DNA of 64,000 nt from contig CAVYGB010000001.1 in the NCBI GenBank assembly GCA_963767925.1, positions 64,001 to 128,000 of the forward strand, read 5' to 3'. Position numbers and translations under genes: made by a program. A model generated the notes under the pieces. The model worked only from the letters and a program-made list of their open reading frames with translations. It made no database searches and was not told the DNA's origin. Origin of the DNA: an uncultured delta proteobacterium. Lineage in GTDB: Bacteria; Myxococcota_A; Polyangia; Fen-1088. Of the stretch, positions 45,874 to 61,551 are shown in pieces. How positions within the stretch are numbered: the first letter of the stretch is position 1; each line of letters opens with the position of its first letter.

Positions 45874-46020
45874 CCCCTCACCCTTCCTTCTCCCCACGGA
45901 AGACCGCGGGGAGAGGGCAAACGGGCAGCGGGTTGTCGGGCTGAATAGCGTTCCGGCTAGCCCTCGAGAGGGCAAACGGGCAGCGGGTTGTCGGGCTGAA
46001 TAGCGTCGCGGCTAGCCCTC
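45874..46020. repeat. Single family C REP-like unit followed by a 55-bp tandem duplication
   Basis: CCCCTCACCCTTCCTTCTCCCC...GGGGAGAGGG, then units 45911-45965 and 45966-46020, each ending GGCTAGCCCTC. Confidence 0.85.
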
Positions 46021-47274
46021 GACCGAGGTGCTCAGGCGGGCGGCGTTGGTGAGGAGGTAGGTTCGTTCGGCGAGGCTGAGGGTGCGCTCGGCGGCCCGCC
46101 GGAAGAACGTGCTGGCGCCCGCCCGGTCGCCGGCCCGTTCCAGCAGGTGGGCCCGGACGGCGTCGAGGCGGTGGTTGCCGGCCAGGCGCGGGTCAGCCTC
46201 GAGGGTGTCGAGCAACGCCAGCCCGGCGGCCGGACCCTGGACCATGGCCACCGCGATGGCCCGGTTGAGCGCCACCAGCGGGTTGTCGGAGATGCGGCCG
46301 AGGACCTCGTACAGCGCCAGGATCTGCGGCCAGTCGGTCTTCTCGGCGCTCTCCCCCTCGTCGTGCACCGCCGCGATGGCTGCCTGGAGCTGGTAGGGGC
46401 CGACCGCTCCCCGGCGCAAGGTGGCGCTGATGAGGGCCACGCCCTCGGCGATGGCCGCCTGATCCCAGCGGGTCCGGTCCTGCTTGTCGAGCGGGATCAG
46501 CTCGCCGGCGGGCCCGGTGCGGGCCGTCCGGCGGGCGTCGGTCAGCAACATCAGCGCGAGCAGCCCGGCCACCTCCGTTTCGCCCGGGGCCAGCCGGTGC
46601 AGCAGGCGGATCAGGCGCAGCGCCTCGCTCGACAGGTCGGTCCGCACCAGCTCGGGCCCCCCGCTGACCGCGTACCCTTCGTTGAAGATGAGGTAGAGCA
46701 CGTGCAGCACGTCGGGCAGCCGGCTGGCCAGCACGGCCGGGCCGGGCATCTGGAAGGTCTCGCCCGACTCCTTGATGCTCGCCTTGGCCCGGCTGATCCG
46801 CTGGGCCATCGTCGCCTCGGGCACCAGGAAGGCCCGGGCGATCTCGGCGGTGGTCAGGCCGCCCACCGCGCGCAGGGTGAGGGCGATGGCCGAGGTCGAG
46901 GTGAGGGCCGGGTGGCAACACATGAAGAGCAGGTCGAGGGTGTCGTCACGCTGCTGGGCCCCCTCCGCGTCGGCGGCCAGGGCGACCTGCTCGTCGGCCG
47001 GCACCAGGCTGACCACCAGCTTCTCCCGGTGACGGCGGGCGCTCTCCGCCCGCACGTGGTCGGTGATGCGGCGGACGGCCACCTGGATCAGCCAGCCGCG
47101 CGGGTTGTCGGGCCGGCCCTCGCCCGGCCACTGGGAGGCCGCCGCGATCAGCGCCTCCTGGACCGCGTCCTCGCAGGCCGGGAAGTCCCGGTACCGGCGC
47201 AAGATCGTGCCCAGCACCTGCGGCGCGAGCTCGCGCAACAGGTGCTGGGTCCCGGCGTCGAGGGCAGGTGACAT
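46012..47274 (-). CDS. ECF42-type RNA polymerase sigma factor with C-terminal extension
   Basis: EDAVQEA, LFMCCHPAL, EATMAQRISRAK, LYLIFNEGY, GPYQLQAAIAAVH, TDWPQI. Confidence 0.92.
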   Translation of the reverse strand: MSPALDAGTQHLLRELAPQVLGTILRRYRDFPACEDAVQEALIAAASQWPGEGRPDNPRGWLIQVAVRRITDHVRAESARRHREKLVVSLVPADEQVALAADAEGAQQRDDTLDLLFMCCHPALTSTSAIALTLRAVGGLTTAEIARAFLVPEATMAQRISRAKASIKESGETFQMPGPAVLASRLPDVLHVLYLIFNEGYAVSGGPELVRTDLSSEALRLIRLLHRLAPGETEVAGLLALMLLTDARRTARTGPAGELIPLDKQDRTRWDQAAIAEGVALISATLRRGAVGPYQLQAAIAAVHDEGESAEKTDWPQILALYEVLGRISDNPLVALNRAIAVAMVQGPAAGLALLDTLEADPRLAGNHRLDAVRAHLLERAGDRAGASTFFRRAAERTLSLAERTYLLTNAARLSTSVEG

Positions 47275-47293
47275 CGCGGCCGATCGCGCCTGG

Positions 47294-47334
47294 CGAAGTA
47301 GTCGGGTTCCCTCGCTTCGCTCGGCCCCGACTAG
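47294..47334 (-). repeat. Short hairpin repeat family A, copy 3
   Basis: TAGTCGGG...CCCGACTA hairpin that includes the YciI stop codon. Confidence 0.85.
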
Positions 47335-47714
47335 GCCGGGGCGCTCATCACCTGCCGCACCTCGATCGCCAGGTACAGCGGTTGGCCGCCGGGGCCGGGG
47401 GCGGCCGAGGCCTCGGCGGCGATGGCGTAGGCCCGCTCGGGGCTGGGCACCTCGACGATCCAGTAGCCGGCCAGGTACTCCTTCGACTCGGGGAAGACGC
47501 CGTCGGTGATCGGCTTGCCCTCCTTGCTCCCGCGCACCAGCCGAGCCTGATCGGGGCCTGCCAGGCCCTCGGCGCCGACCAGCTCGCCGGCCGCCGACAG
47601 CTTGCCGGCGAAGCTCTTCATGAACTCGATGTGCCGGACCAGGTCCTCCTTCGGCCACTGCGCGACCTGGAAGGGGCCGCCGCCCGGGGTGTTCATCATC
47701 AGCATGTATTTCAT
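47331..47714 (-). CDS. YciI/DGPF family protein
   Basis: MKYMLM, ITDGVFPESKEYLAGYWIVEV, IEVRQV; usual ECF42 partner. Confidence 0.92.
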   Translation of the reverse strand: MKYMLMMNTPGGGPFQVAQWPKEDLVRHIEFMKSFAGKLSAAGELVGAEGLAGPDQARLVRGSKEGKPITDGVFPESKEYLAGYWIVEVPSPERAYAIAAEASAAPGPGGQPLYLAIEVRQVMSAPA

Positions 47715-47805
47715 GGGTCGCTCTTCCCTTCGTCGTGTTTCAACTCTGCGTCCTCGGGCTCCCCGTCCGCTCCGCTCGCGCTTCCGCGGGGCCCTTCGTC
47801 CGGTA

Positions 47806-47832
47806 GTCGGAGCCGACCCGCCCGCCTCGACA
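47806..47832 (-). promoter_or_regulatory. Probable ECF42 autoregulatory promoter
   Basis: Minus strand TGTCGA-N17-CGAC about 90 bp above the YciI start, matching the ECF42 -35 TGTCGA / -10 CG(A/T)C motif. Confidence 0.6.
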
Positions 47833-48247
47833 TCGGGCCGGTCGATTTTTCGATCTTTCTCCCCGCCGACTCAAGTGACGGAAAGGACGGGAAAATGAGC
47901 CGCCCGCCGGCGCGAGCCGCCGGCGAACCCGACCGACCTGTCGGGTGATCGGATGCGAGGGCGGTGGAGGTCAGCGCTTGGGATCCGTTGTCCCGCTCGC
48001 GCGCACCTGGTTCGCCCCGTCGCTGTTCTCACCGACGGAAGGGTACGCCCTGAATGTGAGACACGACGGGCCAAATCGTGTACGAGGCGCACGCTATCGC
48101 CCTGGCGTTCTGGTACGAACAATTCTGGGGAATCATCGCGGGGACTGCATGAGCGCTGGTAACGAACACGCAGTCACGATGGCACCCCGGCAATTCGCGC
48201 GAGCCGGCAATGCGGATTGTTCCAGAGCCGGATGACTTCGTCCAAAA

Positions 48248-50095
48248 ATGAACGAGAGTCTTCCTGTAACGAGAGGCCCTGTCGCCGCCTTGATGGCGAT
48301 TCCCGGTGCACGCGGGGGGGGCGGCACGGCCGGTGACGGGCGGGCGCGCGACGAAGGCGCCTTGCGACCCGGGACCCGCCTGCGGAGCTACCAGCTCGTC
48401 AACCGGCTGGCGATCGGCGCCACCTCCGAGGTCTGGCTCGCCAAGCTGACCGGCGCCCAGGGCTTCGAGAAGATCGTCGTGTTGAAGGTGATCGCGGCCG
48501 ATCCCGCCCGCCGGGGGGAGCTGGCCGATCTGCTCACCAACGAGGCCACCATCGGTGCGCGGCTGTACCACCCCGGCATCGTCCACCTGCTCGACTTTGC
48601 CCAGGCTGACGCCCGTTGCTTCATCTCCATGGAGCACCTCGACGGCGTGAACCTGCTGCAGGCGGCGGTGCGGCTGGGTGAGCTCGGGCAACGTTTTCCT
48701 CTGCCGCTGGTGGTCTATGTGGCTGGCCAGGTCTGCCGCGGCCTGCACTACGCCCACGAGCTGGCCGATTCGAAAGGTTCCCTCGGCTTTCTCCATCGCG
48801 GGATCAGCCCGGACAACGTGATGTTGTTGCGGTCGGGCGCGGTGAAGTTGATCGACTTCGGCGCCTCCCGCATGCGTTCGGTGCCGACCCCGCCCTCCAG
48901 CGTCGGGACCCAGACCCACTACGCCGCCCCCGAGCGGCTCAACGACCGGGAAGAGGATCGGCGCAGCGACATCTACTCGCTGGGCGTCGTCCTTTACCAG
49001 ATCCTGTGCGGGCAGCGCCCGTTCGAGGGCGACGACGACGTGGTGCGGGCCCGCGTGCTCGAGGGGCGCCCCGCCTCGCCCACCGACGTGGCGCCCGACC
49101 TGCCCGAGGGGATGGCGCAGGTGGTGCTGCGGGCGATGTCCCGCGACCCCGACAAGCGCCAGCCCACCGCCGAGGCGCTGTCCACCGACCTGCAGGCCGC
49201 CTACGAGGAGCACCTCGCCATCGCCCCCGACTCGGGCCACGACGAGCTGGAGCTGCGCATCGGCCTCAACCAGATCTTCGGCAACGGGCTCAACGGCGCC
49301 AACGAGGTGCCCGGGTCGATGCCCCTGCGGATCATCGCCCGCGCCACCAGCGCGGCGCGCTCGCTCGGCTCCGAGCCGGTGGCCCTCGCCCCCGCGGCCC
49401 CCATCGCCGCTCTTCCCCTGCTGGTGGGCGGGGACCCGCCGGCCGAGCCGGGCTGGACCCAGGACGACACGACCGAGCCCTGCTCGATGCCCCTGCCGGT
49501 CGAGGAGCCCGCTTCCTCCCCGCCGGCCCGCGCGCCCGGTCCCGGATCCATGCCGGGGGCGGTGCCCGAGCCCATCCCCACCCAGGAGTCGGCCCCCGTG
49601 CCGGTCTCGGCCCTGTTCGACGGGGGGACCTCGAGCGGCCGCCGCGTCCCCACGGTCTACTGGCTCAAGGACGAGGTGGGGGCCGACCTCACCGGGTCGG
49701 TCTTCGACGTGGCTCTCACCCGCGTGCGCGAGCCCTCGATCAACTTCGTTCCCCGGGAGATCTCCGGGTTCGGCGAGAAGTCCGGAGTGGCCGACATCTT
49801 CGCCATCCGCCGCCGGGGCGAGGCGGCCGAGAGCGGCCCCCGCCACCAGGCCTGGATCACCCCCGAGCCTCCCCCCACGGCCGCCTCGGCCGGGCCGGCG
49901 CCGCCGGCCCCCGAGGACCGCCGTACCCCCCGCCAGCTCGAGGCGGCGCGATGTTTCGATCGAGGGCTGGCCTTTCTCACCGACAAGCAGTACGGGCTCG
50001 CTCTCGACGAATGGGAACGCGCGATCGAGCTCGACCCGTACAACCGGACGTACCAGACAAACCTGAAGCGACTACGCGCGCGCCACAACAAATAG
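48248..50095 (+). CDS. Ser/Thr kinase-like protein with C-terminal TPR; probable pseudokinase
   Basis: VVLK, HRGISPDN (catalytic Asp is Gly), DFG, APE, SDIYSLG; Pro-rich linker; TPR FDRGL...WERAIELDP. Confidence 0.88.
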   Translation: MNESLPVTRGPVAALMAIPGARGGGGTAGDGRARDEGALRPGTRLRSYQLVNRLAIGATSEVWLAKLTGAQGFEKIVVLKVIAADPARRGELADLLTNEATIGARLYHPGIVHLLDFAQADARCFISMEHLDGVNLLQAAVRLGELGQRFPLPLVVYVAGQVCRGLHYAHELADSKGSLGFLHRGISPDNVMLLRSGAVKLIDFGASRMRSVPTPPSSVGTQTHYAAPERLNDREEDRRSDIYSLGVVLYQILCGQRPFEGDDDVVRARVLEGRPASPTDVAPDLPEGMAQVVLRAMSRDPDKRQPTAEALSTDLQAAYEEHLAIAPDSGHDELELRIGLNQIFGNGLNGANEVPGSMPLRIIARATSAARSLGSEPVALAPAAPIAALPLLVGGDPPAEPGWTQDDTTEPCSMPLPVEEPASSPPARAPGPGSMPGAVPEPIPTQESAPVPVSALFDGGTSSGRRVPTVYWLKDEVGADLTGSVFDVALTRVREPSINFVPREISGFGEKSGVADIFAIRRRGEAAESGPRHQAWITPEPPPTAASAGPAPPAPEDRRTPRQLEAARCFDRGLAFLTDKQYGLALDEWERAIELDPYNRTYQTNLKRLRARHNK

Positions 50096-50122
50096 GCGCC
50101 GGGTCAAAGGACGGACACAATC

Positions 50123-50494
50123 ATGAGCACCAAGAGCGAAAAGATCAGCGAAGTCCTGCGGGGCCTTCGCACCAGCTCGCCGGAGGTCATCGGCGCCTGC
50201 GTGGTCAGCACCGAGGGCTTCATCGTCGCTTCGGTCGTCCCCAGCGAGATCGACGAGGACCTCATCGGCGGTATGGCGGCCTCTCTGCTCGGCGTCGGCG
50301 AGCGGATCGCGGCCGATCTGATGCGCTCGCAGATGGAGCAGGTCTACGTCCGCTCGCCCAAGGGGTACATCATCGTCAACGCCGTGGGTCCCGACGCCGC
50401 CCTGGTGTTGCTGGTGACCCGGGAGGCCAAGCTGGGGCTCATCTTCCTCGAGCTGAAGCGAACCACGGTCGAGCTGGTCAGGCACGTCGCATGA
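50123..50494 (+). CDS. Roadblock/LC7 (MglB-like) protein
   Basis: ACVVSTEGFIVAS, GGMAASLLGVGER, AKLGLIFLELKR. Confidence 0.92.
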   Translation: MSTKSEKISEVLRGLRTSSPEVIGACVVSTEGFIVASVVPSEIDEDLIGGMAASLLGVGERIAADLMRSQMEQVYVRSPKGYIIVNAVGPDAALVLLVTREAKLGLIFLELKRTTVELVRHVA

Positions 50495-51216
50495 TGGGAA
50501 GCGCCCGCGCCACGCTGCTGATGACGGGGTGCCTGGCTCTGGGACTGGCCGACGTCGCCGTGCTGAACCTGGTGCTGTTTCCCCGGGTCCGGCAGCAGGG
50601 CAAGGGACCGCCGCCCGCCCCGACCGAGCCGCTGCCCCGGGTGGTCCCGCGGCCGGCGCCGATGGTGGCCGCCACCCCCGCCCCCCTGCCCGATCCCGAG
50701 CCCGCCGCGGCGCCCGAGCCCGCTGCGGTCCCCGAGCCCGCCGCGGTCTTCGAGCCCGCCGCGGTCCCCGAGCCCGATCCCGTCGCCATCGCCGTCCCCG
50801 AACCTGCTCCGGCCCGCGCGCCGGCGGAGGCGCCTCCCGCGATCAACGAGCAGGTCCTCGCCCGCCTCGAGACCGAGGCGCCGCAGATCATCCTCTTCGA
50901 GACCAACCAGGCGCGCCTCGACCGCGAGGCGCAGGCCGCCATCGACCGCCTGGCCGCCCGGCTGACGGCGGTGCCGGCCACGGTGGTCCTGATCGAAGGC
51001 CACACCGACGTCCGGGGCCCCGAGACGGCCAACTACCGGCTCAGCCGGGCGCGTGCCCGGGCCGTCTTGCTCCGATTCACCGCCGAGGGAATCCCCCGCA
51101 GCCGCGTGGTGCTGCGGTCCTTCGGCTCGCGCCGCCCGGCCGCTAGCGGCAGCCACTCCGAGGCGCTGCGCCGCAACCGTCGGGTGGAGGTCTCCGTGCG
51201 GCGAGGGACTTCGTGA
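50491..51216 (+). CDS. Membrane-anchored OmpA/MotB-type peptidoglycan-binding protein
   Basis: ATGA overlap; N-terminal TM; PEPAAV repeats; IEGHTD, NYRLSRARA, NRRVEV. Confidence 0.9.
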   Translation: MMGSARATLLMTGCLALGLADVAVLNLVLFPRVRQQGKGPPPAPTEPLPRVVPRPAPMVAATPAPLPDPEPAAAPEPAAVPEPAAVFEPAAVPEPDPVAIAVPEPAPARAPAEAPPAINEQVLARLETEAPQIILFETNQARLDREAQAAIDRLAARLTAVPATVVLIEGHTDVRGPETANYRLSRARARAVLLRFTAEGIPRSRVVLRSFGSRRPAASGSHSEALRRNRRVEVSVRRGTS

Positions 51217-51220
51217 CATC

Positions 51221-52375
51221 ATGAACGCCACCAATCCGGTCATCGTGGTCTGGATCGCCTCTTTGATGGGGGCGCTGCTGTTCTTCGCCGCCGGCGCCTT
51301 CGCCGCCCGCCGGCGGGCCTACGCCGGCGGCCCGGTCGCTGGCCTGGGCGCGGTCAAGCGCAACACCCCGGTGCCCTCGGCGGCGGCGGGGGGCGTGTTC
51401 GATCAGCCCGCCCGCCCGCCGGTGCCCAACCTCGACGCCAAGATCGCCGCCATGGAGGCGGAGGCCACCCTGCTGCAGTCGGCCCTGGCCACCGCCCAGG
51501 AGCAGCTCAAGACCCGGGAGGGGGAGCTGCAGCGGTTCCGCCGGGCGCTCGAGGAGGTGCAGAGCCGCAGCGGCGAGGAGGCCGGGCGCTGGCACAGCGA
51601 GCGCGCCGACCTGGAGGACCGGGCCGCCCGGGTGCCCCGCCTCGAGGCCGAGCTCGAGCAGCGCCGTCAGGAGATCGCCCGCTGGCGTCAGGAGCTGCGG
51701 GAGGCGGAGGGCCAGCTCGCCCGCTCGCCCTCGGCCGAGACCGAGCAGACCCTGAAGCAGGACCTGGCCATCAAGGTGCAACTCTTGCGGGCCAACGAGC
51801 AGCGCCTCGTCCACCTCGAGGAGGAGAACGCCAAGCTCCGCCAGGACACCGGCGGGGCCGCCGGCGTGCGCGAGGAACGGGACCGGCTGCGCGCCGAGAA
51901 CGCCCAGCTCCGGGCCAAGGCCTTCGCCGGCCGCCCGGCCAGCAGCGGCTCGTCGATCCTGGGCGGCGGGGGGACGGTGCCCCTGCAGGCGCCGCCCAAG
52001 GGCGCCGGTCGGGGCCACCTGTTCCAGACCTTCGTCGAGCAGGTCAGCCGCATGGCCGACGTGCGCTGCGCGGTGGTGGCCGACGAGCTGGGCCTTGTCG
52101 TGGCCAGCCACGGCAGCCTCGGCGACGAGGTGGCGGCGGTGGGGGCCCTGCTCTCCCGGGCGGGCGGAAAGGCCATCGAGGTGCTACCCCTAAGAAATGT
52201 GCATCGGGTGACGGTCGAGGATGACCAGCGGATCATCCTGACCCTGAGACCCCTGCCGACCCGGGAAGGCCGGGACAGCGACCTCTCGTTGATCACGCTG
52301 GCGGTCGGCGTTGCTCCGGATCCCCAGGCACTCACAAAGCTCATCAACGAGGGTCCGCGCAACATTCTGACGTGA
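51221..52375 (+). CDS. TM - coiled coil - roadblock-like protein
   Basis: N-terminal TM, long heptad region, C-terminal CAVVADELGLVVAS...EVAAVGALL. Confidence 0.8.
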   Translation: MNATNPVIVVWIASLMGALLFFAAGAFAARRRAYAGGPVAGLGAVKRNTPVPSAAAGGVFDQPARPPVPNLDAKIAAMEAEATLLQSALATAQEQLKTREGELQRFRRALEEVQSRSGEEAGRWHSERADLEDRAARVPRLEAELEQRRQEIARWRQELREAEGQLARSPSAETEQTLKQDLAIKVQLLRANEQRLVHLEEENAKLRQDTGGAAGVREERDRLRAENAQLRAKAFAGRPASSGSSILGGGGTVPLQAPPKGAGRGHLFQTFVEQVSRMADVRCAVVADELGLVVASHGSLGDEVAAVGALLSRAGGKAIEVLPLRNVHRVTVEDDQRIILTLRPLPTREGRDSDLSLITLAVGVAPDPQALTKLINEGPRNILT

Positions 52376-52393
52376 TTGCCAAAGGAGTTACCA

Positions 52394-52909
52394 ATGCCAT
52401 TGCCAACCTCACCCGCCAACGCGATACCCTCGCTGGACGCGTCCGCCTACAAGGGCGTGGATGTCACCAACGCGCTCAATATCGTGCGCCCCACCCTGGG
52501 TGATCAAGCGGGCATCGCCCTCTACCGCCTGCTGCGCCTGGTGGCGCTGGAGGACATCATCGGGCGGGGCGCGGCGGGCACCGCCTACATCGCCGGCAAG
52601 AAGCTGGGGATCGCGCTGGGGCTGACCAAGCTGGAGGACTTCCTGGCCCTGTGCAACGCCCTCAAGATCGGGATCATCAAGGTCCCCGTCCTCAAGGCCG
52701 AGCAGATCCACATCGACGTGTACGAATGTGTGACCTGCTCGGGCATGAAGAAGGTGGGGCGGACCCTCTGCCACTTCGAGGGGGGCCTGATCGCCGGCGC
52801 GGTCGAGCACATCCTCAAGAAGCGGACCCGGGCCCACGAGATGACCTGCATCGGCGGCCTCGGCCACGAGGCCTGCGGCTTCGACCTGGAGTTCCGGGGA
52901 GCGGTTTGA
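52394..52909 (+). CDS. Stand-alone V4R domain protein
   Basis: AAAGGAG RBS; RPTLGD, AGKKLG, YECVTCSG, LCHFEGGLIAG, EMTC..GHEACGF. Confidence 0.9.
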   Translation: MPLPTSPANAIPSLDASAYKGVDVTNALNIVRPTLGDQAGIALYRLLRLVALEDIIGRGAAGTAYIAGKKLGIALGLTKLEDFLALCNALKIGIIKVPVLKAEQIHIDVYECVTCSGMKKVGRTLCHFEGGLIAGAVEHILKKRTRAHEMTCIGGLGHEACGFDLEFRGAV

Positions 52910-52934
52910 AAGAGACCGAGCTGTCTGGCCGGAG

Positions 52935-53142
52935 ACCCCTCCCTCTCCCCGCTGCGCGGGGCGAGGGCGAACAGGTGAGGAGGAGCGGAGATTTCGGCCG
53001 AGTCCCGGCGCCTGGCCGGTGGTCAATGGGAGGGGAGCCTTCGGCTGGATCCGGCAGATGTTGGGGCCCGGGGGATTGTGGGGGCACCTGGCCGGTCGTT
53101 CGCCCTCGCCCCGCGGCAGCGGGGAGAGGGCGGGGTGAGGGG
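52935..53142. repeat. REP-like inverted doublet, family C
   Basis: CCCTCTCCCCGCTGCGCGGGGCGAGGGCGAAC...GTTCGCCCTCGCCCCGCGGCAGCGGGGAGAGGG between convergent operons. Confidence 0.85.
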
Positions 53143-53213
53143 TCCTCTGGCGTTCGCGAGACCGGCTTGCTGCTGTCGTCGAGCGAGGTCCCCTCTCCCG
53201 GGGGGCTCCGGCG

Positions 53214-53798
53214 TCACTGGGCCAGGGCCACCCGGATGACGATGCCGCCCATGACGTCGCCGAGCTTGAAGTCGGTGCGGGGGCTGTCGGGGTGGCCGTT
53301 GTGGCAGTCCACGCAGGCCTGCGAGACCGCCTTGTCCGGGTAGACGGCGGTGAAGTAGCGGGCCTCGCCCAGCACCTCGTCGGTGTAGTGGTTTGTCGCC
53401 TTCTGGGTCACCTCGGCCAGGCCGACCTTCTCCGCCTCGGTGCGGGGGCGGTTCTGCTTGTTGATGGGGTCGAGCGACAGCAGGCTGTAGGAGAAGTCCT
53501 TGGTCTTCTCGCGCACCCGCTCGGCCCCCATGCGGAACATCTGGGCGGGCAGGGGGAGGGTCTTCTCGTCCTTCCAGTGTTCGGTGGCCTTGAGGACCTT
53601 GTCCTCGTTCTGGAGGCGGTTGACCACCTCCTTTGTGTAAACCTCCCGGTCGGCCGACATCACGGCGTAGAGAGCGTCGGTGAAGGCGCGTTTGCGGGCG
53701 GCCTCGTCGGGCGGGGCGGGCGGGGGGGTGGCGCGGCAGGAGGAGCCCAGGAACGCCCCGGCCAGCAAGGCCGGTATAATCGAGTCGGTTGCTTTCAT
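53214..53798 (-). CDS. DUF3365 (Tll0287-like) monoheme lipoprotein
   Basis: Lipobox GSSC, LPLPAQMFR, YSLLSLDPIN, ACVDCHN, FKLGDVMGGIVI. Confidence 0.85.
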   Translation of the reverse strand: MKATDSIIPALLAGAFLGSSCRATPPPAPPDEAARKRAFTDALYAVMSADREVYTKEVVNRLQNEDKVLKATEHWKDEKTLPLPAQMFRMGAERVREKTKDFSYSLLSLDPINKQNRPRTEAEKVGLAEVTQKATNHYTDEVLGEARYFTAVYPDKAVSQACVDCHNGHPDSPRTDFKLGDVMGGIVIRVALAQ

Positions 53799-53858
53799 CA
53801 GTCGTCGTCCTTCGCAAGGTGTCGGCACGGTAGCGGCTGGCGCCGGGGGGGGCCGGCG

Positions 53859-55250
53859 TCAGCGGGGAAGCTTGTCGATGAGGTCCATGCTGGTGACGGC
53901 GGGCGCCGGGCGGCCCTGGAAGTTGGTCTGCACCAGGGCGGGATCGGCCAGCGCGTCCAGGGAGAAGCTCGCGCCGTGGCAGTGGATGCAGACGTCTCGC
54001 CACATCCGGTCGCTGGGGCGGAGGTTGCCGTTCTGGTTGTGCTCGACCTTGATCACCTGGGCGCCGTCCTTCGTCACGAGCTGCCGGGGCAGGTGGCAGG
54101 TCGCGCAGGAGACGCCGGTGCCGGGCGCGGCCTCGTGCCGCTGCTCGTCCCGCCAGGCGTTGAAGTGGGCCGAGGTCCGGTAGGCTCGGGTGTGGCTGTC
54201 GTCGTGGCAGCCCTCGCAGGCGGTCACCGCGGCCTGCACCCGGTCGAAGCGGTGGGACCCGTGGCAGGTGGTGCAGCCGAGGGTGCGGGAGGCGCCCTCT
54301 TCCTTCGCCTGCGGCTTCATCGGGGCCCGGGCCAGGCTGGGGGACATGGCGCTGTGGCCGGCCACCAGCCGCATGCCGTGTTTGCCGTCCCGGAAGCCCA
54401 GCCGCTCGTCGCGGTGGCAGTTGGCGCAGACGGTGTCGTTGACCGTCCAGCTCCAGCTCGGGCTGGGGGCGTTGACGCCGGGGGCCCGGTCGCCGTCGAG
54501 GGGCCGCTCGTGGCAGCCGGTGCAGTTGACCTGGGCCCGGGCGTGGGCCGACGCCGTCCACTCGCTGATGCTGGCCATCATGCGGCCGTTCCACTGCTCG
54601 GGCTCCATCCCCTCGGGCCCTGGCTCGCTGCCCGAGGTGGCGGGAAAGTCGGGCGGGGGGGGGATGGCGGCGGCGACCGTGGGGGCCAGCACCACCGGCG
54701 GCAGCGGGACGCGGGGGTCGGCCCGCAGCTCGGGAGCGCCGCGGTCCTTGAGCAGGAAGTCGCGGTACAGGCCCCGGTTGTCGTGGTAGTTGTGGCAGCC
54801 GGCCGAGGCGCAGCCGGCGTCGTCGAAGGTGGCGTGGCTGGGGCGATCCTCGCGAACGTCGGCGTGGCAGGCGATGCAGAAGGTCTGCGGCTCGCTCACG
54901 CTGCCGCGAAGCCGGGCCTCGGCCCGGTGCTCGCGGTGGCAGGCCACGCAGGAGCGGGCGTCGACGTGGGTGAGCTGCAGGGCCCGCACCGGGTCGTCGA
55001 ACTTGGCGGGGGCGTGGCTGTCGTTGCGGGCGCGCAGCGATTCGCCGTGACAGCCCAGGCAGGAGGCCTCGCTGACCCCGCCGAAGGGGGTGTGGCAGGT
55101 GGCGCAGTCGTTCTCGATCTGGTGGTGCCCGTCCGAGGTGCGCCCGGGCAGGAACAGCGCCTGCTCGGCCCGCCAGTGGCGGTTGCCGGCGAAGCCGACC
55201 GGCGCGCAGAACAGCAGCCCGAAAAACAGTCGGCGGGGCCAGGTCCTCAT
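53859..55250 (-). CDS. Multiheme c-type cytochrome (10 CxxCH plus 1 CX4CH)
   Basis: CATCH, CLGCH, CVACH, CIACH, CASAGCH, CTGCH, CANCH, CTTCH, CEGCH, CATCH, CIHCH. Confidence 0.93.
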   Translation of the reverse strand: MRTWPRRLFFGLLFCAPVGFAGNRHWRAEQALFLPGRTSDGHHQIENDCATCHTPFGGVSEASCLGCHGESLRARNDSHAPAKFDDPVRALQLTHVDARSCVACHREHRAEARLRGSVSEPQTFCIACHADVREDRPSHATFDDAGCASAGCHNYHDNRGLYRDFLLKDRGAPELRADPRVPLPPVVLAPTVAAAIPPPPDFPATSGSEPGPEGMEPEQWNGRMMASISEWTASAHARAQVNCTGCHERPLDGDRAPGVNAPSPSWSWTVNDTVCANCHRDERLGFRDGKHGMRLVAGHSAMSPSLARAPMKPQAKEEGASRTLGCTTCHGSHRFDRVQAAVTACEGCHDDSHTRAYRTSAHFNAWRDEQRHEAAPGTGVSCATCHLPRQLVTKDGAQVIKVEHNQNGNLRPSDRMWRDVCIHCHGASFSLDALADPALVQTNFQGRPAPAVTSMDLIDKLPR

Positions 55251-55257
55251 GGCGGGA

Positions 55258-55905
55258 TCAGAAGTAGTAAGAGGCGAGGACGTGCAATCCGATGAAGGCG
55301 ATCACCGGCCAGAACAGCAGGACGTGCAGCCGGCGGCCGATCTTGAGCCCCCGGTGGACGGGGGGGCTGCCCCCCATGGCGAGCGAGCAGTAGGCGCCGA
55401 GCACGCACAGCGCGAGAAAGAGGATCGACAGCCAGAGGTTCAGGTTGGCCCCCAGCCGCAGCCCCGTGTGCGAGACGAGCCCGGCGATGGCCAGGGTGCC
55501 CACCAGGGCGTGCACGGTTCGCCACAGCCAGAGCTGCTTGCTGCCGGCGCGCAGCTTGCGGGCCAGCGGCAGAAGCATGCCGATCACGAGCAGCCCCACC
55601 ATGGCGAAGCCGGTGATCTGCTGCTCGAGCGGTCGGCGCAGGAAGAACGCCCACTGGGTCAGCCAGTTGGGCTGGTAGATTTGCAGCAGCTCGCGGCCGC
55701 CGGCCGTGACCGCCACCAGGAGCAGCCCGAGGAGCCCCATCGCGCCCATCGCGCGATGACCGCGGGACCGGGTGGGCTTGCCGGTGGCGGCGCTCGGCTC
55801 GCGCTGGGCGGTGCGGGTTTGCCCTGGGCGCGCGGCGATCCTGATCCCGGACGCAGCCGTCGCCAGGGTCGGAACCGATTTGGTGGGGTTCGCCGACAAG
55901 GACAC
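55258..55905 (-). CDS. Membrane protein with His residues in TM helices (cytochrome b-like)
   Basis: WRTVH...VSHTG and RRLHV...GLHV His pairs in hydrophobic helices. Start uncertain (55749/55905). Confidence 0.6.
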   Translation of the reverse strand: MSLSANPTKSVPTLATAASGIRIAARPGQTRTAQREPSAATGKPTRSRGHRAMGAMGLLGLLLVAVTAGGRELLQIYQPNWLTQWAFFLRRPLEQQITGFAMVGLLVIGMLLPLARKLRAGSKQLWLWRTVHALVGTLAIAGLVSHTGLRLGANLNLWLSILFLALCVLGAYCSLAMGGSPPVHRGLKIGRRLHVLLFWPVIAFIGLHVLASYYF

Positions 55906-56074
55906 CTCTACCCGCTGAATCCGTCCCTTTTTCAAAGCCGGACGGGCTCGTTTCTTCGTCGATCGTGGAACGACAGGTACGCGTCGCACGCACTCCCCCT
56001 TGCCCTCATACCCCCGAGTACCGTTGCCAAAAACTTACCGTTCCCGGCGGCCAAGTCAACGAGCGACCGGAGCC

Positions 56075-58051: not shown

Positions 58052-58510
58052 GTGCAGGTGTGGCGCATCCTGCGGCGACGGTACCTGCGCGAAGCGCTCA
58101 GCGGCCGCGGAGGCCTTGCCGTGGCAGGCCGCTGGCACAGCCGGGGCCGCCTCATTGTCTACGCATCGGAGTCACTGTCGCTGTCCGCGCTCGAGGTGCT
58201 GGTTCACACGGAGCCCGATGTGGTGCCGCCCGACCTGATGTCCGTGGTGATCAACATCCCCGACGACATCCGCATATCCACCATGCACCTCCGGACGCTG
58301 CCCGTCCGATGGCGGGGCCATCCAGCGCTCCGCTCGCTTCAGGTGCTGGGCAACCGGTGGCTAGACGCCCGCCGGACGGCGATTCTCCAGGTGCCGTCGG
58401 CCGTCATTCCCGGTGAGCGCAACTACCTGATCAATCCCTCCCACCCCGACGCCGGGCGCATCCGCGTCGTCGGTGCTGCGCGTTTCGCCTTCGACTCACG
58501 GTTGATCTAG
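58052..58510 (+). CDS. RES-domain toxin (NAD+ phosphorylase family)
   Basis: VWRI, GRW, VYASESLSLSALEVLVH, LQVPSAV, NYLINPSHPD, FDSRL. Confidence 0.93.
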   Translation: MQVWRILRRRYLREALSGRGGLAVAGRWHSRGRLIVYASESLSLSALEVLVHTEPDVVPPDLMSVVINIPDDIRISTMHLRTLPVRWRGHPALRSLQVLGNRWLDARRTAILQVPSAVIPGERNYLINPSHPDAGRIRVVGAARFAFDSRLI

Positions 58511-61500
58511 GTCGCCGACGCCATCTGCGCGCCGGCGTCAGCGAGGTGGGGGGACTCGTCTTGCAGGAGGAAGCCGGCGGCGGCGAGCTGGGGGCGCAAG
58601 GTCGTGGCGTCGCCGACGATGGCCAGGACCTCGCGGTCCTGGCAGGGTTGCAGCAGGGTGGCGACGGCGGGGGGGGTGGTGGCGGCGAGGTTGGTGGGGT
58701 AGTCGTCCCAGACGGTGAGGGGCCAGCGGTGGTGGAAGGCGCTGCGGATGGCGCTGGCCTGCACCGAGGCGAGGGCGAAGCGGCTCATGAAGGTGCGGCC
58801 CACTTCCCAGCGGGCGTCGGCGAAGCTTGCGGGGTCCAGGGCGCCGCGGCCGATCTCGCCGATGACGGCCAGCAGGTGGGTCAAGGCGCGCGCGACGGCG
58901 GGGTTCTCCACGGTGCCGCCGAGCTGCAGGTGGGCGGCGTTGCCGGGCATCACCACCACCCGGGCGTGCAGGCCGTAGCTGGCGCCCCAGCTCGCGCGCA
59001 CGCTCCAGGCGCGCTCGCCGGCCAGCTCCTCCAGCACATCGTAGGCCGGGCGCCGCTCGGGGGCGGCGTCGGCCAGGCGGCAGCCGAGCGATAGGCTGGC
59101 CTGGGTGGCGCCGGGGCGATCCACCAGGTAGGCGGCGCGGTGGGTGGGACCGGCGGGCGCGGGGGGCGCGGCCATCGGCAGGGCGGGTGGGCCGGCGGCG
59201 GTCCAGGCGCCGAGGTAGCGATCAGCGAGCGCTTTTACCGCCGCCGGCTCGACGTCGCCGTGGACCACGACGACGGCGTTGTCGGGGCGGAAGTGGGCCT
59301 GCACGAAGGCGCGGGTCTCGCTGGCCGGCGCTCCGGCCAGGGCCAGGGGGTCGACGTAGCCCGCCTCGCCGAAGGGGTGCCCGGGGTAGAGCGCGCCCCA
59401 CAGGCGCTGGCCGGCGGCGAACTCGGGGCGGCGGCTGGCCCGGCGCCAGTGCTGGCTCTCGTCGCGCAGCCGGCTGCCGAGCAGGAGCAGGGCCTCGTCG
59501 TCGAGCTCGCGGCAGCGGACGCTGTCGGACAGGACGGCCAGGCCGTTGGCCAGGTTGCCGGAGAAGACGCGCACGAAGGTCTCCGATTCGGTGAGCCCCT
59601 GCAGCCCCAGCATGCGGCCGCCCACCGGCTGCAGGCTGCCGTGGGTCCGACAGCGGGAGGGGTGCAGATCTGCGGCCAGGCGGGCCAGACCGACCGGCCG
59701 CAGGCTGGCGTCGCCGCCGCGCAGGCCGAGCTCGATCTGGGCGATGGGGGCGGCGGGGCGGGGGATGAGGTGCAGCTCGAGGCCGTTGGCCAGCCGGAAG
59801 TGGGGCAGCCGGGCAAGGCCGGGCGAGGGGACCGTCTGGCGGATGCGGGCGCCGTCGAGCGCCTCGGCGGGGGCGCCGGTGCGGGCGGGGATGGCGGCGG
59901 GGTCGCCCAGCAGGTGGGGCGCGGGGTGGAGGGGCTCGGAGGGGGCGGCGGTCCCGCTCGACACGCCGGGGATTTGGCTGCTCTCCGGCTCGAGGTAGAT
60001 CGCCACCGCCCGGTCGCGCCCCAAAAAGTCGATCCCGAGGTCGCGCACGCGCGCCGGCTTGATCGCGGTCAGCGCCCGGAAGTTGTCGAGATAAAACGTG
60101 GCGCGGCCGGTGGCGGCCAGGTGCTCGGCCAGCGCCAGGGCGCGGGTCAGCGGCTCGACCGAGGTGGCCAGCAGGTCGGTGGCGGCGTACCAGCGGCTCG
60201 TCGCGGTCTCGGCCAGGCGCTCGCCGGTCCAGGCCTCGCCGAGGATGTCGAGCAGACGGGTGCGGGCCCAGGCCGGGTCCGACCCGGGCCGCAGGGAGGC
60301 CTGCAGCAGGATCACCGAGGCGTGTTGCAGCTCGAGGCTCTGGGCGTCGACCCGCTCGATGTCGCGATCGCGGACCGGATCGAGCGCGGCGGCGAGGGCC
60401 TGGTCGAGGCGGGCGGTGGTCAGGCGCAGCAGGGCGCCGTCGTCGCGGGGGCCGGGCGGCAGCGACCAGGCCAGCAGCAACTCCGGCTGCACGAGGGGGC
60501 CCCGGTGCCGTTGCAGGGCGCGCTGGTGGGGGGGCATCGCGGGGGAGGACGTGCGCGCGCGCAGCGGCGGTCGCGGCTCGCTGGCCGGGCCTTCGGGGCC
60601 GCGGGGGCCGAACAGGACCTCCGCCGGCCAGACCCCGACCAGGCGGCTCACCTCGGCGGGGCCGACGTCGCCGGCGATGACCAGGGTGAAGTTGTCGGGG
60701 CGGTAGTGGCGGGCGACGAAGGCGCGCGCGTCGGCGGCGGTGGCCGCGTCGAGGGAGGCGTCGGTGCCGCTCACCGGTCGGGCCAGCGGGTGACCGGGCG
60801 GGAAGAGGGCCTGCAGCACCAGCTCGAGCCCGCGCTGGCCGACGGTGGTGTCGCTCCGTTGCCGGCGCTCGTTGCGCACGACGCCCTTCTCGGCGGCGAA
60901 CACCTCGGGCGAGACGCCCTCCAGGGTGCGGGCCAGGCGCCAGCCCTCGAGCTCCATCAGGCGGGGGAGCTGGTCCCGGTGGGCGATCGAGTGATAGACG
61001 GTGCGGTCGCTCGTCGTGTAGGCGTTGAAGGTGGCGCCCATGCGCTGCAGGTGATCCCAGAGCTGCGGTCCGCCCCCCGGCCGGGAGCGGAAGGCCAGGT
61101 GCTCGACCAGGTGGGCCAGCCCCTCCCGCCCGGGCGGATCGGCGGTGCCGCCCGCGCCGAACACCGCCACCGCGGTCACGATGGGGGCGCTGCGGTCCTC
61201 GATCACGAGGACGCGCGCTCCGCTGGGCAGCGGCACCAGCCAGTGCGGGTGCTCCTGCGGCCCGATCACCGGTGAATCCGGCAACCCGGTGGCGCAGGCG
61301 CCGGCGAGCAGCAGGGCGGCCAGGATCGGTGCGGGCGCCCGGCGGGGGCGATCGCGATAGGGGGCGGCTGCCCGGCGGGGACGATCGCGATCGCTTGCGG
61401 GTGCCCGGCGGGCGTGCTCGCGATCGGTGGCGGGTGCTCGGCGGGCGTGCCCGCAATCCGTGGCGGGTGCCTGGCGGGCGTGGTCGCGATCGGTGGCGAC

Positions 61501-61551
61501 GGGGGTCGGGAGGCGCGCGGAGGGGGCGGTCCGCGGGGCCGCGGGGGTCAT
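58507..61551 (-). CDS. M16 (insulinase family) zinc peptidase, lipoprotein-like
   Basis: GLAHLVEHL (HxxEH), FNAYT, EKGVVRNERRQR, HYRPDN, second half RLANGL...HFRPDN; lipobox LAGAC. Confidence 0.92.
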   Translation of the reverse strand: MTPAAPRTAPSARLPTPVATDRDHARQAPATDCGHARRAPATDREHARRAPASDRDRPRRAAAPYRDRPRRAPAPILAALLLAGACATGLPDSPVIGPQEHPHWLVPLPSGARVLVIEDRSAPIVTAVAVFGAGGTADPPGREGLAHLVEHLAFRSRPGGGPQLWDHLQRMGATFNAYTTSDRTVYHSIAHRDQLPRLMELEGWRLARTLEGVSPEVFAAEKGVVRNERRQRSDTTVGQRGLELVLQALFPPGHPLARPVSGTDASLDAATAADARAFVARHYRPDNFTLVIAGDVGPAEVSRLVGVWPAEVLFGPRGPEGPASEPRPPLRARTSSPAMPPHQRALQRHRGPLVQPELLLAWSLPPGPRDDGALLRLTTARLDQALAAALDPVRDRDIERVDAQSLELQHASVILLQASLRPGSDPAWARTRLLDILGEAWTGERLAETATSRWYAATDLLATSVEPLTRALALAEHLAATGRATFYLDNFRALTAIKPARVRDLGIDFLGRDRAVAIYLEPESSQIPGVSSGTAAPSEPLHPAPHLLGDPAAIPARTGAPAEALDGARIRQTVPSPGLARLPHFRLANGLELHLIPRPAAPIAQIELGLRGGDASLRPVGLARLAADLHPSRCRTHGSLQPVGGRMLGLQGLTESETFVRVFSGNLANGLAVLSDSVRCRELDDEALLLLGSRLRDESQHWRRASRRPEFAAGQRLWGALYPGHPFGEAGYVDPLALAGAPASETRAFVQAHFRPDNAVVVVHGDVEPAAVKALADRYLGAWTAAGPPALPMAAPPAPAGPTHRAAYLVDRPGATQASLSLGCRLADAAPERRPAYDVLEELAGERAWSVRASWGASYGLHARVVVMPGNAAHLQLGGTVENPAVARALTHLLAVIGEIGRGALDPASFADARWEVGRTFMSRFALASVQASAIRSAFHHRWPLTVWDDYPTNLAATTPPAVATLLQPCQDREVLAIVGDATTLRPQLAAAGFLLQDESPHLADAGAQMASAT
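61340..61500 (-). repeat. 33-bp in-frame tandem repeat x5 (e.g. TDRDHARQAPA)
   Basis: Five imperfect 11-aa units before the signal hydrophobic stretch. Confidence 0.8.

Follow-up and report, generated by a model that had tools for sequence, protein, structure and literature searches.

How does a roadblock protein serve in signalling when no GTPase gene lies beside it? The question is raised by five co-oriented genes of an uncultured delta proteobacterium, a soil myxobacterium of the GTDB lineage Bacteria; Myxococcota_A; Polyangia; Fen-1088. The genes lie within positions 64,001-128,000 of the forward strand of contig CAVYGB010000001.1 (GenBank assembly GCA_963767925.1), a stretch of 64,000 nucleotides (nt) that was analysed as a whole and is called the window here. 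An earlier note, made from the letters of the window alone, had taken the genes for an undescribed signalling module without a GTPase, in which a V4R protein might stand in for the missing switch. Our analysis supports the module and suggests another role for V4R. We favour, with a probability of roughly 0.5, a signalling cassette that is built on a pair of roadblock proteins, is equipped with a kinase, a V4R sensor and anchors, and descends from MglA-PATAN cassettes whose GTPase gene was lost. In the numbering of the window, with Pfam expect values (E) where given and protein lengths in amino acids (aa), the five genes are:

48248-50095, + strand: gene 1, kinase-like protein with a TPR-like tail (about residues 560-612), 615 aa; Pkinase, 8.1e-33
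50123-50494, + strand: gene 2, roadblock/LC7 protein, 123 aa; Robl_LC7, 1.5e-13
50491-51216, + strand: gene 3, OmpA-like peptidoglycan-binding protein, 241 aa; OmpA, 1.3e-17
51221-52375, + strand: gene 4, protein with a membrane segment, a coiled-coil spacer and a predicted second roadblock domain at its C-terminus, 384 aa
52376 (TTG start) or 52394 (ATG start) to 52909, + strand: gene 5, stand-alone V4R/DUF2507 protein, 171 aa from the ATG

The list of open reading frames (ORFs) agrees with the layout described before: the genes share one orientation, and with the ATG start for gene 5 the intergenic gaps measure 27, -4, 4 and 18 bp. An NCBIfam scan found no model above its own cut-off for any of the five proteins. 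Among 40 relatives of this genome only two carry the V4R protein, so close kin are of little use for synteny. We scanned one genome per species and obtained 53 V4R loci (L003-L055), in which the module genes were counted with profile hidden Markov models (HMMs) from alignments built in this analysis; in loci of high guanine-plus-cytosine content, some coordinates of the coiled-coil gene were set by tblastn or HMM rather than by gene calling. A roadblock gene adjoins the V4R gene in 32 of the 53 loci, in three gene orders and three phyla. The first order is that of the window (kinase, roadblock, OmpA, gene 4, V4R). In the second, V4R is divergent from kinase, roadblock, OmpA and gene 4, and in the third V4R comes first, followed by kinase, roadblock, OmpA and gene 4. 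The V4R-roadblock pair was found in Myxococcota, in Fibrobacterota (L052, L053) and in two metagenome-assembled genomes (MAGs) labelled Clostridia (L049, L051), and a divergent group of Myxococcota (L038, L046, L047) has two roadblock genes. Contig ends truncate four further loci, in which the kinase (L007, L012), a gene-4 homologue (L032) or V4R alone (L027) can be seen. Two copies of the module (L014, L018) lie on different contigs of one Polyangiaceae MAG. For positions 48000-53200, a search of sequencing runs gave no RNA run, and one soil metagenome DNA run contains 0.14 of the sampled words.

Across the module loci, V4R is 60-82% and the roadblock protein 65-82% identical, whereas the kinase, OmpA and gene-4 proteins share only 26-48%. 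V4R and roadblock, by far the better conserved genes, form the core of the unit. This neighbourhood check upholds the proposal that the five genes are a conserved, syntenic unit. The claim that the unit is undescribed held as well: our literature search found no published description of the unit, the supplementary tables of PMC4316618 lying beyond the reach of that search. The genes are a real and conserved signalling cassette, and apparently an undescribed one.

The platform of this cassette would be a pair of roadblock proteins. Matched against the PDB, the profile of the module roadblocks found Asgard archaeal roadblocks first (7f8m, 8e-25; 9jue, 3e-20; 7yh1, 2e-16), then CvnB5 (3leq, 1e-14), MglB (1e-5), MglC (1.6e-4) and LAMTOR2 (about 6e-4). 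Among solved structures, gene 2 is thus nearest to the Asgard roadblocks and CvnB5 rather than to MglB. The second member would be contributed by gene 4. Pfam gave only sub-threshold matches for this protein (LAMTOR5, 3.2e-4; Robl_LC7, 0.0075), and its C-terminus reached 16.4 bits against Robl_LC7 (PF03259), under the cut-off of 23. When its C-terminal 134 residues were compared with the gene-2 family by hhalign (profile of 14 orthologues), the match had a probability of 90.8% and an E of 1.2e-6. Additionally, the AlphaFold2 model of the C-terminus, with a predicted local distance difference test score (pLDDT) of 87.9, follows the order alpha, two beta, alpha, three beta, alpha, and its top Foldseek matches were roadblock structures (3kye; MglB, 6hjm; Thorarchaeota, 7f8m). 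Because of the hhalign result and the predicted fold, we assign gene 4 to the roadblock superfamily; its C-terminus is, as modelled, a second roadblock domain, in agreement with the earlier note.

Both membrane-bound members of the cassette appear to be anchored by a single segment. Gene 3 matched PF00691 with 64.4 bits (cut-off 27.2) and carries an N-terminal hydrophobic anchor and a Pro/Ala-rich linker. An N-terminal hydrophobic segment was present in 17 of 23 OmpA orthologues, and among 24 gene-4 orthologues 19 have one hydrophobic segment ahead of the roadblock domain, so the single-pass anchors that had been predicted are conserved. The long coiled coil predicted along with them is not: the spacer from membrane segment to roadblock domain varies between 46 and 351 residues among gene-4 orthologues. 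In such a topology, the body of gene 4 would be cytoplasmic and the OmpA domain periplasmic.

The gene directly upstream of the roadblock gene encodes the kinase-like protein. Besides Pkinase, Pfam reported for it a weak match to TPR_2 (0.0025), under the cut-off. Gene 1 retains the VAIK Lys, the alpha-C Glu and DFG; HRG stands in the place of HRD, and the Gly loop is degenerate (IGATSEV versus GGMGEV in orthologues). The catalytic Asp is kept, as HRD, HGD or HCD, in all 26 kinases adjoining the module elsewhere. The catalytic-loop Lys is replaced by Ser in gene 1 and by Ser or Thr in 23 of the 26 orthologues. The description of gene 1 as a pseudokinase thus suits the copy in this genome, and it is limited to this genome because the Asp persists in all 26 of the others; judged by its motifs, the family overall is atypical but probably active.

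The TPR-like motif makes up the last 45 or so residues of gene 1. The same motif is C-terminal in the kinases of L015, L016, L052, L096 and L101, in the REC-PATAN proteins of L005 and L093, and in the PATAN protein of the MglA cassette L092. In L005, the REC-PATAN protein occupies the position held by the kinase in other loci. Kinases of the divergent and V4R-first gene orders (L008, L024, L031) have no TPR-like tail and end in a short conserved WPW motif. Every tail-bearing protein, be it kinase or PATAN, is encoded directly upstream of a roadblock gene. From this recurrent position we infer that the tail may dock the protein encoded upstream onto the roadblock platform.

The V4R protein is the other half of the conserved core. 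Pfam recognised gene 5 as V4R (PF02830; 1.7e-13, 50.8 bits versus a cut-off of 31) and DUF2507 (1.6e-8), and the V4R profile matched MJ1460 (2.1e-8) and YslB (7.1e-8). Its predicted structure (pLDDT 88.8) matches the fold of YslB, PoxR, MopR, MJ1460, Bet3/TRAPPC3 (including Thorarchaeota 7yh3) and H-NOX, with Foldseek E values of 1e-7 to 1e-5 for YslB, PoxR and MJ1460. The likeness to the Bet3 fold pointed out before is therefore borne out by the model, though YslB, PoxR, MopR and MJ1460 are nearer. Invariant in the 52 V4R sequences are C112, C115, C126, C152 and C161, together with E111, E129 and E149, and the last two of these Cys align with Cys of MJ1460. In PoxR and Thor-TRAPPC3, according to the accessible part of PMC10933270, Zn is held by four Cys and ligand cavities are present.

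A profile search among 1.84 billion representative proteins returned 32 V4R relatives at E<=1e-30, 403 at E<=1e-10 and 1212 at E<=0.001. We scanned for fusions in 24 of the 150 best relatives, picked for length. P0005 combines kinase, TPR tail and V4R, P0002 a kinase and V4R, and P0029 a roadblock and V4R; these natural fusions link V4R to both the kinase and the roadblock protein. V4R was also found as the N-terminal domain of GGDEF (4), SpoIIE (3), histidine-kinase (3) and sigma-54 (3) proteins, and of a TrkA channel. Since its relatives are fused to classic signalling outputs, V4R would be an input domain; on sequence grounds it reads as a Cys-rich ligand sensor, not as a GTPase stand-in.

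Is a GTPase hidden in the locus after all? The MglA of the same genome gave no match in the 56 related loci by tblastn at E<=0.01 and none in their six-frame ORFs by phmmer at E<=10. The loci conserve no Walker A motif, and no GTPase family was seen among the Pfam-scanned neighbours of 18 loci. The absence of a GTPase from the operon thus stands, and extends to the related loci. The idea that MglA was merely lost from this copy is refuted at the locus level, because no homologous locus holds an MglA either. Over the Pfam cut-off, the genome itself (9.3 Mb in 13 contigs, 83.8% complete) yields a single match to V4R and two to roadblock. The other roadblock, besides that of the module, is an MglB encoded beside the only MglA (mglB-mglA, C8:2708217-2709305; MglA, C8:2708217-2708804), which is the only small GTPase detectable at that completeness. 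Other candidates were discarded: hits to the Ras family were confined to ORFs of 513-832 aa, ATP_bind_1 gave marginal matches only, in large ORFs, and a GTPase query from a proteobacterial cassette matched only MglA (E 0.001). MglA-family matches, two to three each, were present in all five module-bearing genomes examined from other lineages.

The relatives of the roadblock protein point to its ancestry. They were found by profile in 53 of 401 Myxococcota genomes, and the module itself scores best. In the next tier, the gene series is an MglA-like GTPase, PATAN (DUF4388), a roadblock and a second roadblock, clearest in L092 and seen in five other loci; an MglA-like gene lies within 1.5 kb in six of the 30 roadblock loci examined. 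In the roadblock tree (63 sequences), a V4R-linked clade of 31 rows is supported at 99/94, with Fibrobacterota nested inside, and MglA-linked sequences branch below it. The module is most likely derived from MglA-PATAN cassettes, as judged from these sequences. One such MglA-PATAN-roadblock cassette, L089, has a V4R-like gene within it.

In the V4R tree, stand-alone Pseudomonadota sequences are interleaved with roadblock-adjacent ones, and at least four state changes are needed. All five stand-alone-V4R genomes examined have a roadblock gene elsewhere. In four Pseudomonadota (L103-L106, G436-G439), this gene is part of a cassette of a small GTPase (ATP_bind_1/Ras), a protein of 212-215 aa and a 120-aa roadblock, with V4R far away; in two of these genomes the middle protein matched the roadblock weakly. 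Three of the cassettes are followed by genes for a PAS protein and a phosphonate-type periplasmic binding protein. Of 300 genomes sampled from the class, 30 carry the roadblock, and one, the centre genome itself, carries this V4R. Because the four genomes are related, the co-occurrence of V4R with the GTPase cassette is suggestive only.

These results bear on the proposal that V4R replaces the GTPase as the switch on a roadblock platform, which would be a prokaryotic counterpart of the Bet3-longin (TRAPP) or Ragulator assembly. The matches of the V4R model to Bet3/TRAPPC3, with 7yh3 among them, the nearness of the roadblock profile to Asgard roadblocks and the natural roadblock-V4R fusion P0029 all speak for it, and in the V4R-kinase-roadblock order V4R sits where MglA sits in MglA-PATAN-roadblock cassettes. 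Operon position is weak evidence, however, and the model is nearer to YslB, PoxR, MopR and MJ1460 than to Bet3. A nucleotide-binding motif is absent from V4R, and its relatives are common N-terminal sensors attached to outputs of many kinds. V4R-like and MglA-like genes stand together in L089, and a GTPase-roadblock cassette persists elsewhere in the four V4R-bearing Pseudomonadota. Because MglA-family GTPases persist elsewhere and a V4R-like gene lies in L089, the stand-in role proposed before for V4R is not supported. We therefore consider a V4R switch unlikely.

The same data leave more room for a GTPase acting from a distance. The roadblock pair could be a regulator (GTPase-activating protein, guanine nucleotide exchange factor or adaptor) of an MglA-family GTPase encoded elsewhere, here the MglA on contig 8, with the V4R and kinase-like inputs tying polarity or motility to a sensed signal; the operon would then be a detached arm of the MglA polarity network, like MglC. 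Consistent with this, genes for MglA-like GTPases and PATAN proteins accompany the nearest relatives of the roadblock, the kinase keeps a PATAN-type tail, and L005 keeps a REC-PATAN protein in the kinase position. The mglB-mglA pair of this genome, the MglA-family matches in the five other module-bearing genomes and the V4R-like gene in the MglA cassette L089 point the same way, as do the four stand-alone-V4R Pseudomonadota with a GTPase-roadblock cassette elsewhere, such roadblocks being present in 30 of 300 genomes of the class. Yet none of the 56 loci has a GTPase within about 7 kb, whichever of the three gene orders they have, and the MglA of this genome already has its own MglB. The module roadblock profile matches MglB and MglC far more weakly than Asgard roadblocks or CvnB5, the MglA matches carry no control for the base rate of MglA in the lineages concerned, and this V4R is missing from 29 of the 30 gammaproteobacterial genomes that have the roadblock. 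We regard control of a distant MglA as possible but tentative.

What the cassette might sense is suggested by three genes that follow it on the opposite strand:

53214-53828, - strand: stand-alone Tll0287-like (haem-c Cache) protein, 204 aa; PF11845, 1.5e-19
53859-55250, - strand: multihaem cytochrome c, 463 aa, ten CXXCH motifs; Cytochrom_c3_2 and related families
55258-55989, - strand: His-bearing membrane protein of no known family, 243 aa; no Pfam match

An ESM Atlas search with the 243-aa membrane protein gave a best score of 0.83 and no family. Haem-Cache homologues lie beside the module in nine loci, on either side of it. Cytochrome orthologues of 42-45% identity occur in L005, L008, L009 and L017, where they are adjoined by homologues of the 243-aa membrane protein, and weaker ones in five other loci. 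An ORF with at least four CXXCH motifs was present in 14 of 32 module loci and in one of 17 V4R-alone loci, compared with five of 400 random 14.5-kb windows of this genome. The linkage to multihaem cytochrome c and haem-Cache genes suggests that the module reports on the redox or electron-acceptor state of the envelope. The earlier note had noticed neither these linked genes nor the shared tail and the MglA-PATAN ancestry. In L096 (G148:C545, 3910-10219), a kinase with a TPR-like tail, a V4R-like gene, the small and large [NiFe]-hydrogenase subunits, a roadblock and a second roadblock are encoded together; this variant may be a hydrogen-sensing version of the module. In L101 (G147:C23, 4665-9418), a tail-bearing kinase is followed by a roadblock and, about 1.5 kb on, by a second roadblock and an ODP-family di-iron protein, and L052 carries Hcp.

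Two further arrangements were observed. In L034 (4606-7998), a gammaproteobacterial MAG, a stand-alone V4R gene lies between hemerythrin and cytochrome c genes, directly after genes for cytochrome cd1 nitrite reductase and NirT-type proteins. In L024 (8841-10400) and L031 (12950-14452), both of the V4R-first order, a Tll0287-like domain is part of a protein of 500-520 aa that ends in RodZ_C.

Could the genes instead be an anti-phage defence system, or unrelated genes brought together by chance? V4R domains have been proposed as sensors in ParA-linked immune systems (accessible part of bioRxiv 10.64898/2026.10.19.760177), and the PADLOC kinase and ZorB models match genes 1 and 3. These matches run through generic kinase and OmpA/MotB domains only, and the defence reading was rejected on that account; the roadblock and V4R proteins have no PADLOC match, and the genes hold no effector domains. 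Synteny in 32 of 53 loci and redox neighbours of a housekeeping type argue against defence and chance alike, and the natural fusions argue further against chance. We judge either explanation highly improbable.

We therefore return to the signalling cassette, for which we picture the following arrangement, drawn from the domains, folds, synteny, natural fusions, shared tail, phylogeny and cytochrome linkage. Gene 2 would be soluble, and a single N-terminal helix with a spacer would hold gene 4 at the inner membrane. The two would most likely pair to form a membrane-proximal platform that docks two partners through putative contacts. The first partner would be the protein encoded just upstream, held through its C-terminal TPR-like tail: kinase-like in this genome, and an active Hanks kinase or a PATAN response regulator in relatives. 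The second would be the stand-alone, Cys-rich V4R protein as a sensor of a small molecule, a metal or redox state. The OmpA-like protein would fix the assembly to peptidoglycan. The presumed signal is the redox or electron-acceptor state of the envelope, and the output in most relatives would be Ser/Thr phosphorylation; here the kinase would be limited to scaffolding, because its catalytic Asp is lost. Such a cassette would have arisen from an MglA-PATAN-roadblock-roadblock cassette of the Myxococcota that lost the GTPase gene and gained V4R, the kinase and the membrane anchors.

Several observations weigh against this reading. V4R stands alone in 17 of the 53 loci and is thus not tied to an adjoining roadblock. 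All six module-bearing genomes examined encode MglA-family GTPases elsewhere, so a GTPase may still be involved, and in one of them a distance of about 16 kb separates the V4R-roadblock pair from an mglB-mglA pair. In the roadblock tree, five V4R-linked rows (L038, L046, L047, L049, L051) fall outside the main clade on long branches, and the root rests on one long MglB branch. The membrane topology comes from our own hydrophobicity scan rather than from a dedicated predictor. As for the redox link, the CXXCH enrichment comes from related genomes and its control from one genome only; for 18 of the 32 module loci the DNA examined contains no multihaem gene, several of those contigs being short; and in a Clostridia-labelled MAG (L107/L051) the only neighbours are PTS-EIIA and TatD, with no redox context.

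The flanks of the operon contain these further features:

47715-48247: intergenic region of 533 bp, presumed promoter region, separating gene 1 from a divergent YCII-like gene
52935-52972 and 53098-53136: palindromic REP-like element of 38 nt, present as two inverted copies in the gap between the convergent genes

These match the roughly 500 bp of upstream non-coding DNA and the downstream REP (repetitive extragenic palindromic) doublet of the earlier description. The upstream gap gave no Rfam match at E<=0.1 and no sigma-70 consensus upstream of gene 1, and Rfam, promoter and terminator scans of the operon returned nothing. With up to 6 mismatches allowed, the GC-rich palindromic element is present about 54 times genome-wide, and contig C2 accounts for 29 of these copies. 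Divergent from the operon, an extracytoplasmic function-type sigma factor with DUF6596 and the YCII-like protein are encoded at 46012-47714 (- strand), and homologues of neither gene recur beside the module in other loci. Farther downstream, at 58507-61551 (- strand), a 1014-aa protein combines an M16 peptidase domain and an inactive M16 domain, with no relation to the module seen.

How does the cassette compare with known systems? Among the closest are the MglA-MglB-MglC-RomR polarity system of Myxococcus xanthus and the MglA-PATAN-roadblock cassettes described by Wuichet and Sogaard-Andersen (accessible part of PMC4316618), which likewise have the roadblock fold and two roadblock domains encoded together. 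The MglA-PATAN-roadblock-roadblock operons hold the nearest relatives of gene 2, and their PATAN proteins share the tail of the module kinase. In contrast to the Mgl systems, the module has no MglA-family GTPase within four genes (the criterion given in the accessible part of PMC4316618), has a Hanks-type kinase in the place of PATAN, and adds V4R, the OmpA-like protein and a membrane anchor; its roadblock is also distant from MglB and MglC.

The actinobacterial conservon (CvnA histidine kinase, CvnB roadblock, CvnC with DUF742, and CvnD GTPase) similarly couples a roadblock to a membrane-associated kinase, and CvnB5 is near gene 2. Of the conservon parts, however, the operon has only the roadblock, with no HisKA/HATPase, DUF742 or GTPase found by Pfam. 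The module kinase is of the Ser/Thr type and, to judge from its motifs, catalytically dead in this genome, and V4R and OmpA have no conservon counterpart.

Among eukaryotic assemblies, Ragulator and MP1-p14 (LAMTOR2/3) are alike in having a membrane-tethered roadblock pair that may scaffold a kinase; MP1-p14 scaffolds MEK. To these correspond the weak LAMTOR5 match of gene 4 and the LAMTOR2 match of the gene-2 profile, and the fold of V4R matches Bet3 of the TRAPP core, in which Bet3 is joined by longin-fold subunits. The likeness is at the level of the fold only: the module has no Rag or Rab GTPase, and its V4R keeps a Cys cluster like the bacterial sensor V4R domains. One could go further and see in the V4R-roadblock pair an ancient platform of several phyla, the prokaryotic counterpart of the Bet3-longin core and Ragulator, in which a membrane-tethered roadblock dimer and a ligand-binding V4R would control an MglA-type GTPase or a kinase according to lineage, with the myxobacterial operon as the first kinase case without a GTPase; we hold this broader view to be rather unlikely.

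As sensor relatives, PoxR/MopR/DmpR, B. subtilis YslB and M. jannaschii MJ1460 have the same V4R fold, and the MJ1460 alignment includes the last two invariant Cys. In contrast to this group, the module V4R is stand-alone, has five invariant Cys and has roadblock partners instead of a fusion to a sigma-54 activator. Finally, a haem-Cache (DUF3365/Tll0287) nitric oxide receptor bound by a Ser/Thr kinase has been described, in which the kinase docks via a C-terminal helical module (accessible parts of 10.64898/2026.05.25.727664 and 10.64898/2026.02.01.703092). Here too, genes for a soluble Hanks-type kinase and a haem-c Cache protein are linked. In contrast to that receptor, as far as the accessible text describes it, the haem-Cache protein in the window is stand-alone, lacks the transmembrane-HAMP part and is encoded on the opposite strand, and the kinase tail is a single TPR-like motif. 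Roadblock, V4R, OmpA and myxobacteria have no occurrence in the accessible parts of the two reports.

What does the locus mean for these protein families? In 2014, 328 of 749 bacterial MglB homologues were counted as 'orphans' without a GTPase, none of them characterised (accessible part of PMC4316618). For one large clade of such orphan roadblocks, the locus now provides a set of partners: besides V4R, these are a kinase or PATAN protein with the tail, a further roadblock tethered to the membrane, and an anchor of the OmpA type. A likely origin in MglA-PATAN cassettes comes with them. It also provides leads: a docking motif in the TPR-like tail, a sensor candidate in V4R with its five invariant Cys, and a candidate signal in the redox state of the envelope. 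Stand-alone haem-Cache proteins have been stated to have no association with signalling genes (accessible part of 10.64898/2026.02.01.703092), and the locus may give them a signalling context. Should V4R and the roadblock protein bind each other, bacteria would offer a parallel to the way in which Bet3 pairs with longin subunits in eukaryotic TRAPP.

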